Positions 3,422 to 55,535 of a DNA stretch of 64,000 nucleotides are shown in pieces (positions within the stretch are counted from its first letter, which is position 1; each line of letters opens with the position of its first letter). Under the pieces are notes generated by a model. The model saw nothing but the letters and a program-made list of their open reading frames with translations, was not told where the DNA came from and did no database searches. The stretch is from Clostridia bacterium (GTDB lineage: Bacteria; Bacillota; Clostridia; Oscillospirales; CAG-272). Made by a program: the position numbers and the translations under genes. The DNA lies in NCBI GenBank assembly GCA_017482355.1, contig JAFUNJ010000002.1:11092-75091 (forward strand). Reading direction: 5' to 3'.

Positions 3422-4849
3422 TTAAACAAGCTCACCTGTGAGGCAATAGGTGTCTGCGGTGATTATTTTCACGTTTACAAACGTTCCGATAAGGGAATCG
3501 TCGCCTTCAAAATGGACGAGGCGGTTTTTCTCGTTTCGTCCCGTGAGCATTTTCTCGTCGGTCTTGCTTCGTCCCTCGACGAGGACTCGCTCACGCTTGC
3601 CGACGTATTCCTTATTCTTTTCAAGCGATATGCGGTTTTGTGTTTCGAGCAGGCGTGAAAAGCGTTCTTTTTTGACCGCGTCGGGAACCTGCTCCATCGT
3701 TTCAGCAGGAGTTCCGCGCCGTATCGAATAGATGAACGAGAAGAACGCGTCGTATCTTACCGCCTCGAGCATTGAAAGTGTATCTAAGAAATCCTCCTCC
3801 GTTTCGGTCGGGAAGCCGACTATAATGTCGGTCGAGAGTGCTATATCGGGTATTTTTTCCTTCATATATCCGATGAGCGAGAGGTAGGTCTTTCGTCCGT
3901 AATGGCGGTTCATTTTATGAAGGATGGCGTCAGAGCCGGACTGAAGCGGCAGGTGGAACTGCTTTACAATTTTCGGCTGACAGTCGTCACCGCAGTTTTC
4001 GGCGATAACGTCAATAAGCTTGTGGCTCGCATCCTTCGGGTGGCTCGTCATAAAGCGGATCCAGTAATCGCCCTTTATCTTGCATATATCGGAAAGCAGA
4101 TCGGCAAAGCCGTAATCGTCGTAAAGACCCTTGCCGTAGGAATTCACGTTCTGACCGAGAAGGGTTATCTCCTTACAGCCGTTTTTCACGAGTTCTTCTA
4201 CTTCGGCAAGAATATTTTCTCGGCAGCGGCTTCGCTCGCGTCCGCGGACGTAAGGAACAACGCAATAGGTGCAGAAATTGTTGCAGCCGTTCATTATGCT
4301 GATCCAGCCCTTAAACGTGCTTTCGCGTCTGACGGGCATATTTTCGGGGATCGAGTAGCTTTCGTCGGGGTAGAACACTCTTTTTCGCTTCCGCATTGAT
4401 TCAGCGAGATAGTAGGGGAATTTTTCATGGCTTCCCGTGCCGAAGAGGAAGTCGACGTAGGGATATTTATTCTTTATGTCGTTTAATCGGTGCTCCTGCG
4501 CGACCATGCAGCCGCAGATGCCGATTTTGAGGTCAGGATTTTGCGCCTTCAGGTGCTTGAGCTGTCCCGTTATCGAGAGCGCTTTAAGCTCTGCGTGTTC
4601 ACGAACCGCACAGGTGTTGTATAGGATAAGCGACGCTTTTTCCTCGGTCTCGACCTTTTCGTAGCCCATAAGCACAGCCATTCCCATATATCTTTCGCTG
4701 TCGGCTTCGTTCTGCTGACAGCCGAAGGTTCTTATAAAGACGCCCGGGCGTTTTCCGTTTTTTTCATAGTACGCATCGGTCATTTTTTTGACGAATTTTA
4801 CGTCGGGCGACGATGCGTCGAATTTCGTTGTGTATATCATAGAGCACAT
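3422..4849 (-). CDS. miaB: tRNA (N6-isopentenyl-adenosine-37) methylthiotransferase MiaB
   Basis: 475-aa ORF. MTTase N-domain FGCQQNEADSE, radical-SAM CNNFCTYCVVP and a C-terminal TRAM-like region. miaB-mutS-mutL order is common in Clostridia. The true start may be a few codons inside the ORF. Confidence 0.92.
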   Translation of the reverse strand: MCSMIYTTKFDASSPDVKFVKKMTDAYYEKNGKRPGVFIRTFGCQQNEADSERYMGMAVLMGYEKVETEEKASLILYNTCAVREHAELKALSITGQLKHLKAQNPDLKIGICGCMVAQEHRLNDIKNKYPYVDFLFGTGSHEKFPYYLAESMRKRKRVFYPDESYSIPENMPVRRESTFKGWISIMNGCNNFCTYCVVPYVRGRERSRCRENILAEVEELVKNGCKEITLLGQNVNSYGKGLYDDYGFADLLSDICKIKGDYWIRFMTSHPKDASHKLIDVIAENCGDDCQPKIVKQFHLPLQSGSDAILHKMNRHYGRKTYLSLIGYMKEKIPDIALSTDIIVGFPTETEEDFLDTLSMLEAVRYDAFFSFIYSIRRGTPAETMEQVPDAVKKERFSRLLETQNRISLEKNKEYVGKRERVLVEGRSKTDEKMLTGRNEKNRLVHFEGDDSLIGTFVNVKIITADTYCLTGELV

Positions 4850-4980: not shown

Positions 4981-5541
4981 ATGCAGCTTTGGGAGATTTT
5001 CCTCATCGGCGTTTCTTTATCTATGGACGCATTTGCCGTTGCGGTATGCAAGGGGCTTTCGCTTTGTAAAGTCAAGCTTTCGCAGGCCATCATAGTCGGT
5101 CTTTATTTCGGCATTTTTCAGGCGCTTATGCCGCTTATCGGTTATTTTCTTGCGTCAACCGTCGCGTCGAAGATCGCCGATTATTCCTTCTACATAGCAT
5201 TCGCGCTTCTGCTCCTTATCGGTGCGAACATGATAAGAGAGGCGATAAAGGGTGATGATGACACTTGCAACGTATCGCTTTCCTTTAAGGAAATGGTGCC
5301 GCTCGCGCTTGCTACGAGCATTGACGCGCTTGCGGTCGGTGTTTCATTTGCGCTCGTTGAGGTTGAGATATTCTCGTCTGTCGGGCTTATCGGCGTGACG
5401 ACCTTTGTTCTCTCGGCTGTTGGTGTCGCTCTCGGCTCATTCGTCGGTGCGAGGTTCCGCAAGGTTGCGACGATAATCGGCGGGTCGGTGCTTGTCTTGA
5501 TGGGAGTAAAGATACTCCTTGAGGAGTTGGGGGTTATATAA
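4981..5541 (+). CDS. mntP: Manganese efflux pump MntP
   Basis: 186-aa polytopic membrane protein with duplicated SMDAFAV / SIDALAVG motifs typical of the MntP/DUF204 family. Confidence 0.85.
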   Translation: MQLWEIFLIGVSLSMDAFAVAVCKGLSLCKVKLSQAIIVGLYFGIFQALMPLIGYFLASTVASKIADYSFYIAFALLLLIGANMIREAIKGDDDTCNVSLSFKEMVPLALATSIDALAVGVSFALVEVEIFSSVGLIGVTTFVLSAVGVALGSFVGARFRKVATIIGGSVLVLMGVKILLEELGVI

Positions 5542-5543
5542 AC

Positions 5544-5574
5544 AAAAAGAGCAAGACGTACTTGCTCTTTTTTA
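5544..5574 (+). terminator. Rho-independent terminator of mntP
   Basis: gagcaag-acgta-cttgctc stem-loop followed by a T6 run. Confidence 0.75.
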
Positions 5575-5575
5575 A

Positions 5576-5734
5576 TGAATTGATGCTAACGCATCACGAA
5601 TTGGCTTCGCCATGATTTCTCGCTTCGCTCCATGAATTGAATTGCAACTGAATGCCCGTAGGGCAATTCATGCCGCAGGCAATTCACGAAAGCAGAGCTT
5701 TCAATTCATGCAACCGCGAGGTTGCAATTCATTG
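5576..5734. repeat. Mini-hairpin array with AATTCA(T/C) spacer word
   Basis: At least six short GC stems with 3-4 nt loops: 5581-5596, 5602-5612, 5653-5665, 5671-5681, 5688-5702 and 5710-5725. They are separated by aattcat/aattcac/gaattga words at 5665-5671, 5681-5687, 5703-5709 and 5726-5732. Confidence 0.7.
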
Positions 5735-5767
5735 CAAAAAAGCAAGAGTAATCCTCTTGCTTTTTTG
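5735..5767. terminator. Bidirectional terminator (serves the minus-strand gene 5771-7429)
   Basis: A-run, gcaagag-taatc-ctcttgc stem-loop, then a T-run. Confidence 0.7.
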
Positions 5768-5770
5768 CTT

Positions 5771-7429
5771 TTATTTCATTGCGTTTTCGATAGCTGTGTT
5801 TACCTTTTCGCGGAGATTTACGTAGTAGCTCTGCTCAAGCGGACAGTAGTTGAATGCAAGTTCCTTATCAAGGTCCTCCTCGACGAGCTTCATCGTTTCT
5901 TCCTTGCCGATGAGGGAGGAGAGGTACTGAAGCGCGCGGAGGTCGGTGAGTGCGTCTACGAACTGCGCCTGGTGAAGCGAGCGGTATGGCATTCCCTTCG
6001 GTCCGGGATAAACGAGGAATGCGTCTCCTGCAGGCGCGAAATACTCGCCGCAGGTCTCGGAGAAGGGGTTTATCGGGTAGTTTGAATACTGGCAGTTATA
6101 GAAGTTGAAGCCCCACTGAAGGAATCCGACGATGTCATACTTAAACATCTGAACGCCGATCGCTCTCGTTCTCGTTCCCGGCATCGAGAGGAAACGGTTT
6201 GAGGTCTCCCAGTCCTGGCTTACGCAGTAGTACACCCAGAGGTTCGGAACCTTGTTTTCAAGGAATGGCTCGATATGGTTCGACGCGGGGATCGGGTTCT
6301 TGACTGCTCCCATTTCGTAGAACTTATAGTCAGAAAGCGCGTCTATCTGATGGTATTCTCCGATTATATCCCAAATTGCATCCTTTGCTTTGAGGTAGGA
6401 TTCAAGGTGCTCGCCGTAGGGCTCGTCGGAGATATGGAAGTAGAGCATTCCGTCGATTCCGAGCTTCTTTGCGTGAGCGACAAAATCGGTAAGGAATGCG
6501 CGGATGAAGGTCGTATATTCCTCGCTGTGCGAATCGGTCTCCCAACCGAAAATTTTCTTTTCCTCGCCGTTTACGTTTGCAAATATCTTCGGCGCGTGGT
6601 GACAGCCCCACTGCGTGAAGAGGTGGGAAATCTCAAAGTATTCAAATCCAAGCTCAAGGCAGAGCTTTACCCATCTGTCAAAGCGGTCGTAGCCGAACTC
6701 ATAGCCGTTTTCGGTCACGGTTACGTCGACGAGCTGGCAGGTCATTCTCTCGCCGCCGACAGCAGTATCAAGCGGAGGGGTGAAGACAGGGGTGAGTATC
6801 ATATTTACGCCCGTCTCTCTTGCTTCATAAAGGAAATTACGGAGAATCTCCCAATACTTTTCGCTGAACATTTCGGTCTCGTAATACTGGCAAAGTCCGT
6901 CGTTATGGAACCACTCGGTATGTATGAGCGTCTGCTTCGGGAGCACGGCGTCGATGACCTTTATCGGCATCGTTGCTTCGGCGACACAGTTTTCGCCCTC
7001 GTATGCTTTGAAGGTAACGTAATGCTCGCCTGCGGGGATTCCGTCCTTATTTTCTACGATAACGTAGAGCGCACGGAGCTCGTCCTTATGGAATATGAAC
7101 TTATACTGCTCCTCCACGGGACGGAGAAGGTCGGGGTATAGACCTGCCTTTTCGCGGAGGTAACCGTCCATCGGAAGGTCGGGGCGCTTCGGGAAGGTTA
7201 CGGGAACCTGCTCTACGCGGTATGCTTTTACGCATTCTTTTATATCGGATTCGATCTCAAGGCGCGTGAACACCGAGTGCCAGTCCATATCAGTCGCCGC
7301 GTATGCGAGCTGGAAGCAAAGGCGCTCGTTACGCAGCATTGAGAGCTTTTCTATACCGTACTTATCGTCTATATTTTCGTCGATAAAGCACTTTTCGGTT
7401 GAGGGGAGAAATTTGAATTTGTAGTTCAT
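5771..7429 (-). CDS. Putative glycoside hydrolase, DUF4091-like (GH123-related)
   Basis: 552-aa cytoplasmic ORF with no signal peptide. The overall resemblance to DUF4091 proteins comes from memory of the family. No catalytic residues were verified. Confidence 0.45.
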   Translation of the reverse strand: MNYKFKFLPSTEKCFIDENIDDKYGIEKLSMLRNERLCFQLAYAATDMDWHSVFTRLEIESDIKECVKAYRVEQVPVTFPKRPDLPMDGYLREKAGLYPDLLRPVEEQYKFIFHKDELRALYVIVENKDGIPAGEHYVTFKAYEGENCVAEATMPIKVIDAVLPKQTLIHTEWFHNDGLCQYYETEMFSEKYWEILRNFLYEARETGVNMILTPVFTPPLDTAVGGERMTCQLVDVTVTENGYEFGYDRFDRWVKLCLELGFEYFEISHLFTQWGCHHAPKIFANVNGEEKKIFGWETDSHSEEYTTFIRAFLTDFVAHAKKLGIDGMLYFHISDEPYGEHLESYLKAKDAIWDIIGEYHQIDALSDYKFYEMGAVKNPIPASNHIEPFLENKVPNLWVYYCVSQDWETSNRFLSMPGTRTRAIGVQMFKYDIVGFLQWGFNFYNCQYSNYPINPFSETCGEYFAPAGDAFLVYPGPKGMPYRSLHQAQFVDALTDLRALQYLSSLIGKEETMKLVEEDLDKELAFNYCPLEQSYYVNLREKVNTAIENAMK

Positions 7430-24807: not shown

Positions 24808-26112
24808 TTATTTTCGTGTGAGACAAACGACACTCTCGACATGTCCAGTTCGAGGGAACATATCAACGGAAGTTACCGTTCCCATTTCGTAGCCGGATTC
24901 GATAAGCTTTTTTGCATCGCGTGCGAGGGTCGTTGGGTCACAGGAGACGTAGACGAGCTTGCCCAGATTACTTTTCGCGATCTTCTCTGTCAGCTCCGCC
25001 GACATTCCCTTACGGGGCGGGTCAATGAAGACACAGTCGAAATCGCCGATCTCAAAGGTCATCGCGTCGGCGCAGATAAAGGTTGCATTTTCTATGCCGT
25101 TAAGACGTGCGTTCGCTTTTGCATTTTCAACTGCCTGCGGGATTATCTCGATGCCGAGGACTGATGCTTCGGGGCGCGATTTCGCAAACGAAATTCCGAT
25201 TGTTCCTGCTCCGCAGTACAGGTCTGCGACCTTTTTTGCGTCACCTGCGCGCTTGATGGCTTCGTTATACAGAAGCTCGGCGCACGAGCGGTTGACTTGA
25301 TAAAAAGAGAGCGACGAGATTCCGAATCGGCAATCGCAGAGGACATCTTCGATTTTGTCGGTGCCATAGAGCACCTTTATTTTTTTGCCGAGAATAACGT
25401 TCGTTTCCTCGGGGTGTATATTGAGAATCACGCTTACGACGCTCGGAAATCGCTTTATCAATATTTCGGCAAATTCCTTTTCACCCTTGAGCGACTCGTT
25501 CGGCGTGACGAGGCAGGTCATAATCTGTCCCGTTTTTTCGGCGAGGCGGAGATAAATGTGCTTTACCTGCCATTTTTTGCTCTTTATATAGCCCGAGACG
25601 AAGGATGCTATCTCAGAAAGCTCGGGCGCGGTAAGGTCGCACCTTTCGCACGGAATTACGGTATGAGAATGGCGCGCATAATAGCCGATATTTCCGTTTT
25701 CGTCTATCGGGTACTGCGCCTTATTGCGGTAGCCGCCGGTTCTTCCGTCGGTCAGCACCTCGTTTACGACCGCGTCAATGCCGTTTTTTCTGAAAGCCGA
25801 GATAACAATATTTCTTTTCAGCTCAAGCTCATATTCGCGGCTTATGTGTCTGAAAGAACATCCGCCGCAACGCGGAAAGACCGCGCAGTCGGGGCATTCA
25901 CGGTAGGTTGACGGAGTTATTATTTTCTCTATTCTTGCGACCCCGTAGTCCTTTGCGGCTTTTATTATTTTGATTTCAAGCTCGTCGCCCGTCACGCCGC
26001 CGTCGACGAAGGTTACGATACCGTCCACCCTGGCGACCCCGTAGCCGAGGTCGTTCATATCGGTGACTGTGACGGTATGATAAGTATTCTTTTTCAGCAT
26101 TTCGCTCACCAA
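24808..26112 (-). CDS. rlmD: 23S rRNA (uracil-C5)-methyltransferase, RumA/RlmD family
   Basis: N-terminal TRAM, Cys cluster [20 protein letters not shown] motif [10 protein letters not shown] and catalytic YVSCDP. Confidence 0.85.
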
Positions 26113-39189: not shown

Positions 39190-39487
39190 AAAATTCTGCC
39201 ACCCTTGTAGGGGGCGACCTCTCGGAACCCCAAAAATTCGCGTTCGCTCGTTTCGGGGAACCCCTACCTCGATGCCCCGTATAAAAACGATGTTACTTTC
39301 CTTCAACACACGGTTGCTTCGCAACCTACACCTCATCCGGTCTCGAGTAGTTTGTGCTTCGCACAACCTACCGCTCAACCACCTTCCCCAAGGGGAAGGC
39401 AAGGCGGCGTTCGCTTTACGCGTTATGTAGATAACAGAGTGAGCGTGGGAGCGGCGGACGGTCGGGGACGCCCGTTCCTACAAATTA
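39190..39487. repeat. Modular hairpin-chain intergenic repeat, family 1
   Basis: Modules gtaggggg..., cggggaacccctacctcga (39254-39272), aaaaacgatgttac (39283-39296), ggttgc-ttc-gcaacc, ccttccccaaggggaagg (39382-39399) and gtgagcgtgggagcggcggacggtcgggg (39439-39467). Confidence 0.85.
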
Positions 39488-46195: not shown

Positions 46196-46401
46196 GCGCG
46201 TTTTAATTCTTTTTGACGATATTAGGGTGCTTTTATACTTACATCGTTTTTCGCGCGAAAAAAAGATAAAACCGTGGCGCAGTTTCGTTTTTGCCGTGAT
46301 TTTTAGGCGAACGGTTTTAGTAATTTTTTAAATTTAACCACTTATATTTATTGAAATGTCGCTATTTGTTATCTTTTTTTGCACAAATTATGAAAAATCT
46401 G

Positions 46402-55188: not shown

Positions 55189-55275
55189 GCGGGTATGGCG
55201 GAATTGGCAGACGCGCTAGATTCAGGTTCTAGTGGTAGCAATACTGTACAGGTTCAAGTCCTGCTACCCGCACCA
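55189..55275 (+). tRNA. tRNA-Leu (anticodon CAG), class II with a long variable arm, CCA encoded
   Basis: GCGGGTA acceptor pairs with TACCCGC. Anticodon stem CTAGA/TCTAG with loop TTCAGGT. T arm CAGGTTCAAGTCCTG. 87 nt ending in CCA. Confidence 0.95.
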
Positions 55276-55277
55276 TG

Positions 55278-55307
55278 AAAAAGGACTTCCTTTTGGAAGT
55301 CCTTTTT
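55278..55307 (+). terminator. Rho-independent terminator after tRNA-Leu
   Basis: ggacttcc-tttt-ggaagtcc followed by T5. Confidence 0.8.
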
Positions 55308-55490
55308 CAATGATATCCGTTCCCTGCGGTCACGGATGATATACTCTAACGGGTATAATATCTGCTCCGCAGATGATATGCGCTTCGCGCATGAGGGGAA
55401 CGGATATTATATCATGCTTGCTTAGCAAGCATATCATGCGGCGAAGCCGTATATCATATCGCCACAGGCGATAACAACATGACATCTCCA
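55308..55490. repeat. Mini-hairpin array with ATATCAT spacer word
   Basis: Hairpins at 55315-55337, 55360-55374, 55378-55392, 55414-55432, 55439-55449 and 55458-55472 (loops tcc, ttc, tta, gaa, aca). They are separated by atatcat (55409, 55431, 55451) or gatgatat (55335, 55372). Confidence 0.7.
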
Positions 55491-55494
55491 CAAA

Positions 55495-55526
55495 AATCGC
55501 TCGTATGAAACCATACGAGCGATTTT
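55495..55526 (-). terminator. Rho-independent terminator of the sugar-ABC locus
   Basis: atcgctcgtatg-aaac-catacgagcgat flanked by A and T runs. Confidence 0.75.
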
Positions 55527-55535
55527 GTTTTGCAA

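Follow-up and report, generated by a model that had tools for sequence, protein, structure and literature searches.

A two-armed array of words and hairpins downstream of mntP

The 64,000-nucleotide stretch of a Clostridia bacterium genome analysed in this study (contig JAFUNJ010000002.1, positions 11,092 to 75,091 of the forward strand; hereafter the window) carries a 158-bp element at positions 5575-5732, which lies between mntP and a gene for a GH123-like glycoside hydrolase and outside any 23S rRNA helix. An initial annotation had described an array of a constant word and short GC stems between two terminators at this site, and both the units and the flanking bidirectional terminators were found as described. 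Missed at that time were the mirror-image arrangement of the array in two arms, the fact that the whole 158-bp element is the repeat unit, and its membership in a Gut-1-like superfamily. In the following, G, C and L numbers denote genomes, contigs and loci, respectively; G000 is the genome holding the window, and its assembly is 77% complete. The features of the locus are listed below in window coordinates.

4981-5541, plus strand: mntP, manganese efflux pump gene (PF02659, E = 9.9e-49), the upstream convergent neighbour
5544-5572: left bidirectional terminator, AAAAAGAGCAAG-acgta-CTTGCTCTTTTT, of the type AAAAAGCAAGA..., which recurs at other loci
5575-5639, minus strand: left arm, with words reading CAATTCAT on the minus strand; kept in other copies and in relatives
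5575-5582, 5595-5603, 5611-5619 and 5631-5639: left-arm words ATGAATTG, CACGAATTG, the degenerate CATGATTTC and CATGAATTG, respectively
5581-5596: left-arm hairpin, TGATGC-TAAC-GCATCA
5602-5612: left-arm hairpin, TGGC-TTC-GCCA
5622-5628, minus strand: left-arm hairpin, GCGAAGC
5640-5652: centre (AATTGCAACTGAA), where the word orientation flips
5653-5732, plus strand: right arm, four hairpins (H1 to H4) alternating with CAATTCA; the terminal word CAATTCAT ends at 5732
5653-5665, plus strand: H1, TGCCC-GTA-GGGCA
5671-5681, plus strand: H2, TGCC-GCA-GGCA
5688-5702, plus strand: H3, GAAAGC-AGA-GCTTTC
5709-5726, plus strand: H4, TGCAACC-GCGA-GGTTGCA
5734-5768: right bidirectional terminator, GCAAAAAAGCAAGAG-taatc-CTCTTGCTTTTTTGC
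5771-7429, minus strand: GH123-like glycoside hydrolase gene (PF13320, E = 5e-101), the downstream convergent neighbour

Each arm holds about four words, ATGAATTG on the left and CAATTCAT on the right; the words are eight letters long and fixed, and the mini-hairpins between them are paired as far as the adjoining words. The words point outward from the 13-nt centre, which makes the element a dyad, and its ends, ATGAATTG and CAATTCAT, are inverted repeats. The terminal inverted repeat reaches 22 nt at 86% complementarity, running into the terminator arms, and the minimum-free-energy fold joins the two ends of the element, whose terminal inverted repeats are able to pair. In the right arm, CAATTCA starts at 5664, 5680, 5702 and 5725 and the loops are GTA, GCA, AGA and GCGA; on the minus strand of the left arm, the words are positioned at 5576, 5633 and 5638, with degenerate copies at 5597 and 5612, and the loops are GTTA, GAA and GAA. 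CAATTCA occurs nine times in the window against 8.6 expected, which is chance level, yet seven of the nine copies fall within 156 bp, and the strand on which the word reads switches at the centre of the array. Both strands of the element fold better than 200 of 200 shuffled sequences (z = -3.2 to -4.0). The words are spaced 16-24 bp apart, and the earlier argument against clustered regularly interspaced short palindromic repeats (CRISPR), namely that the units are only 16-24 nt long and their variable parts are palindromes, holds. Fuller relatives carry a longer core or a gene of the PF05635 family at the position of the centre, and fuller copies have a long outer hairpin whose place is taken by the right terminator in the window (junction CAATTCAT-TG...).

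Word-anchored hairpins are maintained on one strand

The genome-wide frequency of such arrays was evaluated in G000 by calling every 7-mer repeated at least four times within 160 nt, which yielded 158 array calls (65 merged loci) as compared to 0-1 in shuffled genomes. When the pattern proposed in the initial annotation was counted instead, single units were barely enriched (113 against 72-98 simulated), and only the clusters of at least three units stood out (5 against 0). The description of a constant word with stems that are all different was borne out. Among the 185 distinct units between CAATTCA words, 154 (83%) were perfect word-anchored hairpins, for which the stem had to reach both neighbouring words (TG...CA), to comprise 4 bp or more and to close a loop no longer than 6 nt; shuffled units yielded 7 on average and 15 at most. 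Of the 99 runs in which hairpins connect words of the same orientation, 67 consisted of exactly four words, and the arms were paired divergently in 19 cases and convergently in four.

On the strand where the word reads CAATTCAT, the loops of 3-4 nt (n = 141) were of the G..A type in 69 cases and of the T..C type in four, and the closing pair was C-G in 122. Since the G..A loops are confined to the word strand, each arm has its structure on one strand. Double compensatory changes affected nine of the 13 consensus pairs across 20 homologous right arms, and one-sided breaks were almost absent. These observations showed that selection maintains the hairpins on a single strand. The bias of 69 to four also upholds the earlier suggestion that a role as single-stranded DNA is as plausible as one as RNA. 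An asymmetry of wobble pairs, considered as a further strand test, was dropped because imperfect stems were too few.

These data bear on the idea that the array is a set of double-stranded DNA iterons, in which the words bind a DNA-binding protein of the partition, replication or repressor type and everything else is a mere spacer. The words indeed repeat directly inside each arm and are inverted from one arm to the other, as in transposon ends or in the heptad operators of plasmid omega repressors, and contiguous heptads that lack hairpins exist in the superfamily (TATTCAT four times at C10:197770 and CAATTCA eight times at L075). However, iterons would explain neither why 83% of the spacers are perfect word-anchored palindromes nor the one-strand G..A loops and the compensatory stem changes, and the word spacing of 16-24 bp also speaks against them. 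We consider this explanation extremely unlikely.

Dispersed copies of the element come and go between species

G000 holds three copies of the whole 158-bp element with 91-96% identity: the one in the window and the two listed below.

C14:3459-3616, minus strand: second copy, 96% identity
C11:38322-38475: third copy, 91% identity

The similarity among the copies ends exactly at ATGA(A/T)TTG and CAATTCAT, and all three are located between a stop codon or terminator and the terminator of a convergent gene. Among congeners, the C11 site lacks the element in G008, G001 and G003, as does the C14 site in G008; G003, a member of the same genus, has three copies at other loci. Orthologous intergenic regions were compared as the initial annotation had proposed, and gain and loss of the element were seen: the spacer downstream of mntP contains a GTAG-tagged repeat resembling a REPIN (a hairpin-forming doublet of repetitive extragenic palindromic (REP) sequences) in G004 and G011, and other hairpin chains in G015. 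In G026 and G020, which belong to other families or genera, 8 to 47 matches to the strict pattern were found, and the left and right arms of G026 also occur alone or in other orders, which indicates that the arms are modules. A strict three-word pattern occurred in 18 of the 301 genomes sampled and in 13 of the 153 genera of the order, as compared to none for the reversed-pattern control. Public records with the same grammar, from gut and rumen, are titled Acutalibacteraceae, Oscillospiraceae, Ruminococcaceae and Christensenella. The element had no match in phage and plasmid collections, and a metagenome scan with the mntP 3' end for strains with an empty site gave 0 hits. The flanks of the element are always A...T, which may simply be part of the inverted repeat. 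As in miniature inverted-repeat transposable elements (MITEs), there are terminal inverted repeats, several dispersed copies and relatives with empty sites. These results showed a dispersed repeat that species acquire and lose and that settles next to intrinsic terminators.

The REPIN-like element of the spacers orthologous to window positions 5542-5770, L017 (G004:C22:45045-45277) and L020 (G011:C33:20064-20298), consists of GTAGGGGGCGACGTCCTCGACGCCCC ... and its inverted copy, and its AT-rich centre is oppositely oriented between the two species. Either the centre was inverted between the arms, or the element was inserted in the opposite orientation.

Arrays are linked to genes of the PF05635 family

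In a fuller copy, L114, an open reading frame (ORF) of 131 amino acids between the two arms matched PF05635, the family of the 23S rRNA intervening-sequence protein S23p (E = 2.7e-25), whose members are small Avd-like four-helix bundles. When PF05635 genes in G000, G003, G020, G023 and G026 were examined for at least four copies of a 7-mer within 330 nt, 14 of 20 were near such an array, which was mostly upstream, as compared to 52 of 3000 random windows; each gene has its own word. AATTCAT arrays abut PF05635 genes of an AATTCAT clade at G023:C8 and G003:C83, flank the gene on both sides at G020:C36, and lie 15-130 nt from a gene of this clade in G061, G299, G087, G116 and G020. A hidden Markov model search of public loci added further gene-array cases (L123, L090, L130, L074 and L075). 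The arrays are, as these results showed, physically linked to PF05635 genes.

The three 158-bp copies of G000 are gene-less, with no PF05635 gene in or beside any of them. The PF05635 genes of this genome are located at C21:48515-48820, between tRNA-Gly and tRNA-Cys, and at C7:68139-68447, after tRNA-Arg, and a third copy at C5:143843-144153 is broken. A gene-less copy of G020 (L005) retains the 'cattaagg...ccttaatg' core which brackets the gene at G020:C36, and L005 is therefore regarded as a deletion derivative. The linked protein matched PDB entry 2RLD, an entry with five chains (E = 6e-23), and TIGR02436, while a PHROGs search gave no family; PF05635 has been treated as Avd-like (PMC10053308). 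A correspondence between the five-chain protein and the four-word arms was considered and dropped since the numbers mismatch. Genes between arrays in L148 and L058 were considered as transposases; by eye, without a family search, they looked like ordinary cysE-like and uxaC-like genes.

The nature of the linked gene is relevant to another explanation, in which the array resembles a bacterial interspersed mosaic element (BIME) or other REP element, or a palindrome-associated transposable element (PATE), and is mobilised by a Y1 (HUH) transposase, either a REP-associated tyrosine transposase (RAYT) or one of the IS200/IS605 type, that recognises a hairpin and a single-stranded tag. The foot of each hairpin adjoins the conserved short tag ATTCA, the loops are strand-specific with DNA-type G..A triloops dominating, GTAG-tagged REPIN-like repeats exist in the same genus, and G000 has a Y1 transposase gene (C7:169403-169759). 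However, the lead to such a transposase given in the initial annotation was not sustained: the PF01797 Y1 genes of G000 and four relatives (G003, G020, G023 and G026) all belong to ordinary IS200 elements with the usual end hairpins, unrelated to those of the arrays, and no word arrays. Besides, the copy number is low (three), the repeat unit is the 158-bp element rather than the hairpin, the stems vary between units unlike those of REP, and the linked gene is PF05635. Mobilisation by a Y1 enzyme thus appears very unlikely. The IS200-type element at C7:169403-169759 has a partial second copy at the start of C4 and is unrelated to the arrays.

Arrays with a PF05635 gene recur at the 3' end of rlmD

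In six genomes from four families (G003, G061, G050, G023, G087 and G116), an rlmD/TrmA-type methyltransferase gene, recognised by a protein motif, is followed at its 3' end by an AATTCAT array and a PF05635 gene. At five of the six sites (that of G116 being the exception), a long hairpin is present whose 5' arm is made up of the last codons and whose 3' arm is an inverted copy of the coding sequence of the same genome. In G003, the stop codon of the rlmD-like gene is the TGA of the first word. In G087 (L207, C25 ca. 2050-2700), three tandem whole AATTCAT arrays precede one PF05635 gene, and two of the three repeat units start with a copy of the last ca. 36 nt of the rlmD-like gene. The 3' end of the rlmD orthologue of G000 is located on the minus strand at window positions ca. 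24808-24975 (C3:35899-36066), with the last conserved residues ending at 24820, and since neither a hairpin nor an array is present there, it represents an unoccupied site. The PF05635 genes share 89-90% DNA identity between G003 and G061 and between G087 and G023, while the adjacent rlmD ends share 70-72%. As judged from these identities, the comparison suggests transfer into the same site.

Sister arrays, tRNA loci and the Gut-1 motif

The initial annotation had pointed to the same architecture near position 55308, and the array there is real, mirror-like in layout and akin to the one downstream of mntP. It follows a tRNA gene as listed below.

55189-55272, plus strand: tRNA-Leu gene (Rfam tRNA, 49.2 bits; aragorn), followed by a terminator at ca. 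55277-55307
55308-55473: sister array, CAATGATAT... / ...ATATCAT (words ATGATAT/ATATCAT), mirror layout, sub-threshold Gut-1 match

The sister array begins 2 nt past the T-run of the tRNA-Leu terminator, and a second copy of it is located after tRNA-Arg (C14:42125-42277). Gut-1 is a motif from human-gut metagenomes which was judged on covariation to be probably a noncoding RNA (ncRNA) (Weinberg et al. 2010, Genome Biol 11:R31, PMC2864571). The consensus of its Rfam model, RF01706, is CAAUGAAAU-hairpin-GUGAAAU-hairpin-GUGAAAU-hairpin-UGAAAU, and the gathering cut-off is 50 bits. The model matched the sister array at 32.8 bits (55308-55384, plus strand) and 29.7 bits (55426-55527, minus strand). 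The sole match above the cut-off in G000, and a true one, was C15:12305-12380 with 67.2 bits, and the other arm at that locus scored 49.5 bits. The AATTCAT array, the Gut-1 match and the 55308 array have a build of four words and three hairpins in common. The word families of G000 with the same layout are AATTCAT, ATATCAT (55308-55473 and C14:42125), ATTTCAT (C15:12305) and CATCATT (C7:326960 and C10:70275), and hairpin-free arrays of TATTCAT heptads occur at C10:197770 (four copies), at C20:37233 and on C21.

Because Gut-1 was rated as a likely ncRNA on covariation by Weinberg et al., each arm might be a trans-acting small RNA (sRNA) whose single-stranded words sponge or recruit an RNA-binding protein, like CsrB/RsmZ or the targets of TRAP. 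The fixed build of four words and three hairpins, the compensatory changes and the strand-specific choice of loops agree with this idea. However, no promoter-like site was found, terminators stand on both sides of the array, and the dyad places the 'sense' strands of the two arms on opposite strands. In addition, the words differ within one genome (AATTCAT, ATATCAT, ATTTCAT, TATTCAT and CATCATT), and presence or absence varies between congeners. We therefore regard an sRNA as unlikely.

At about ten of the 21 tRNA locus ends in G000, an array of the superfamily directly follows the tRNA terminator, and five arrays share the junction T-run + CA + ATGA. This placement may point to a module of very stable hairpins that serves the host in the terminator zone by blocking read-through, shielding 3' ends from exonucleases or insulating supercoiling, as proposed for REP/BIME; the position of all three G000 copies of the 158-bp element between a stop codon or terminator and the terminator of a convergent gene and the conserved pairing are in line with it as well. 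Nevertheless, the orthologous spacers of congeners either have no array or contain unrelated repeats, the hairpins have no U-tracts, and arrays also precede PF05635 genes or stand at the 3' end of rlmD, inside likely transcripts. Since the constant word and the mirror layout are also left unexplained, a host-serving module seems improbable.

The TATTCAT-heptad arrays after tRNA-Thr, -His, -Cys and -Gly (G000, outside the window: C10:197728-197880, C20:37187-37330, C21:48150-48280 and C21:48860-49076) have a first half-array bracketed by direct repeats of 8-10 bp. These repeats copy the 3' half of the terminator of their own locus, for example CAGGATTTTC after tRNA-His and ACGGATTTT after tRNA-Cys, and may either have arisen as a target duplication or offer the terminator an alternative partner for pairing. 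Other word families with the same grammar, several of which adjoin PF05635 genes, are AATTTAGCT, CATATCGA(G) and GTGAAGT/ACTTCAC, found at L013-L015 (G026:C25: 45150-45330 and 49500-49690), L003, L186 and L172. At L075, titled Chitinispirillaceae and thus from another phylum, eight contiguous CAATTCA heptads lie upstream of a PF05635 gene.

Terminators and other repeats around the array

The Rfam scan of the window returned tRNA only, and the region 5450-5850 matched no family at E <= 10. The two flanking terminators were considered as a target duplication, which was ruled out since neither their stems nor their loops agree and terminators of this type also occur at element-free loci. Terminators of the type AAAAAGCAAGA(A/G)C-loop-G(T/C)TCTTGCTTTTT are found at many unrelated loci in several genomes, with or without an array element: window 5544-5572 and 5734-5768, G000:C14 ca. 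3620-3655, G008:C9:11998-12034, G001:C2:26161-26198 and G026:C25 ca. 46300-46335. At orthologous sites, the terminator stem has been completely exchanged from one species to another, with the A and T tracts left in place. The terminators here behave as exchangeable modules. A distinct and commoner hairpin-chain repeat without an Rfam match, …GGATGAGGTGTAGGTTGC-loop-GCAACC… and CCTTCCCC-loop-GGGGAAGG, is present at window positions 39312-39435 (G000:C3:50403-50526) and at many other G000 loci.

Interpretation of the element

We think it somewhat probable that window positions 5575-5732 are a gene-less, arm-only and non-autonomous derivative resembling an intervening sequence (IVS) of 23S rRNA, and that it is the AATTCAT variant of a family which has partly been catalogued as Gut-1. 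Full members of this family would be small IVS-like units in which mirror arms, each of four words and three hairpins, flank or precede one PF05635 gene, and the copy in the window would be a non-autonomous (MITE-like) or relic derivative reduced to its arms. The element presumably acts as a folded single strand, either RNA or extruded or replicating DNA. On that strand, the spacers would collapse into word-anchored hairpins that cancel their own length, leaving the words at a close and near-constant spacing. This near-constant spacing would account for stems whose sequence is unconstrained as long as they pair, and for the presence of heptad arrays without hairpins in the same superfamily. 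The words of one arm are complementary to those of the other, and a strand spanning both may also pair as a ladder, which would correspond to the terminal stem cut by RNase III in a 23S rRNA IVS (PMC4990558). The likely partner would be the cognate PF05635 protein and/or RNase III. The effect of the gene-less copy on its neighbours is probably minor.

Several observations weigh against this IVS-like interpretation. RF01706 did not match the array at 5575-5732, either in the region at E <= 10 or genome-wide at E <= 1, and the AATTCAT copies were not matched at all. The G000 copies differ by 4-9%, which indicates that there was no recent burst, and neither a target-site duplication nor a clean insertion junction is readable because the empty sites lie in species that are too diverged. 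No cognate PF05635 gene of the AATTCAT clade was found in the 77% complete G000 assembly or in 13 of the 18 array-bearing genomes; the arrays can therefore persist without the protein. We found no recombinase linked to the arrays, and thus a mechanism of mobility is missing; to our knowledge, PF05635 has no known catalytic activity. The array region contains no promoter-like site and stands behind terminators. Finally, the co-variation of gene and array is no proof that the protein binds the word, and the correlation between clade and word was not counted in favour of binding, as the gene and its array are co-inherited.

A bolder form of the IVS-like interpretation, which we find doubtful, is that word-hairpin arms and a PF05635 gene together constitute a site-seeking mobile element without a recognisable transposase or recombinase. 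The words, regularly spaced on a folded single strand, would be read by a ring-shaped Avd/S23p-like protein, and the element would home to hairpin-bearing sites, namely intrinsic terminators, the 3' flanks of tRNA genes, the 3' end of rlmD and rRNA helices. The identity of 89-90% between PF05635 genes that sit at the same 3' end, where the rlmD ends share 70-72%, is a hint in this direction. If such an element existed, the source of 23S rRNA intervening sequences would be explained.

Gut-1 has been an orphan since 2010, recorded as a sequence pattern alone, and the origin and mobility of the S23p IVS have been a question for ca. 30 years. The shared grammar, the placement at terminators and tRNA genes and the PF05635 link thus provide a common, testable frame for both puzzles, and they account for structured intergenic blocks of gut and rumen Clostridia which current annotation tools leave blank.

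Comparison with known systems

The array resembles Gut-1 in that four short constant words alternate with three hairpins of variable stem, and both occur in gut Clostridia and gut metagenomes. It differs in its word (ATGAATTG as compared to (A/G)UGAAAU in Gut-1), in the failure of the Rfam model on the array, and in that Rfam models one arm as an sRNA, whereas the array is a two-arm dyad, a dispersed repeat and linked to PF05635. The dyad, the dispersed-repeat nature and the PF05635 link are absent from the source paper of Gut-1.

Like REP, BIME and REPIN sequences, the array consists of short intergenic palindromes beside a conserved tag, forms mosaics in both orientations, is placed after genes and shows compensatory stems. 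In contrast to them, it has no RAYT, its unit stems are unrelated to one another (185 distinct units), it is present in three copies, its tag is ATTCA(T) rather than the GTAG or CGTC of REP with tens to hundreds of copies, and its linked gene encodes a four-helix-bundle protein. MITEs share with it the terminal inverted repeats, the excess of gene-less over gene-bearing copies and presence or absence between species, and a gene-less copy (L005) retains the core flanking the gene in the full copy. Unlike a MITE family, however, the full element has no transposase (PF05635 is not a known transposase), no target-site duplication is readable and the inverted repeats are internally repetitive. With Avd of diversity-generating retroelements (PDB 4DWL) and the S23p-like pentamers (2GSC and 2RLD), the likeness is that the linked protein matches 2RLD and that Avd works with structured nucleic acid; the array-linked genes differ in having no adjacent reverse transcriptase, template repeat or variable repeat, and any binding of nucleic acid by these solo proteins is putative.

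The S23p IVS of Coxiella and Leptospira is the remaining system to be compared. The arrays differ from it in being located outside rRNA, at terminators, after tRNA genes and at an rlmD-like 3' end, and in place of a plain 28-bp stem their arms consist of words alternating with hairpins. In Coxiella, terminal inverted repeats of the IVS form a stem, RNase III excises the IVS, and its S23p ORF is preceded by tandem heptamer repeats of variable number (PMC4990558). Both the S23p IVS and the array element are viewed as selfish and without known means of moving, and ORF-less versions exist. The likeness extends to the variable tandem heptamers upstream of the ORF, to the PF05635/TIGR02436 family in the fuller copies, and to terminal inverted repeats that are able to form a stem around the ORF.

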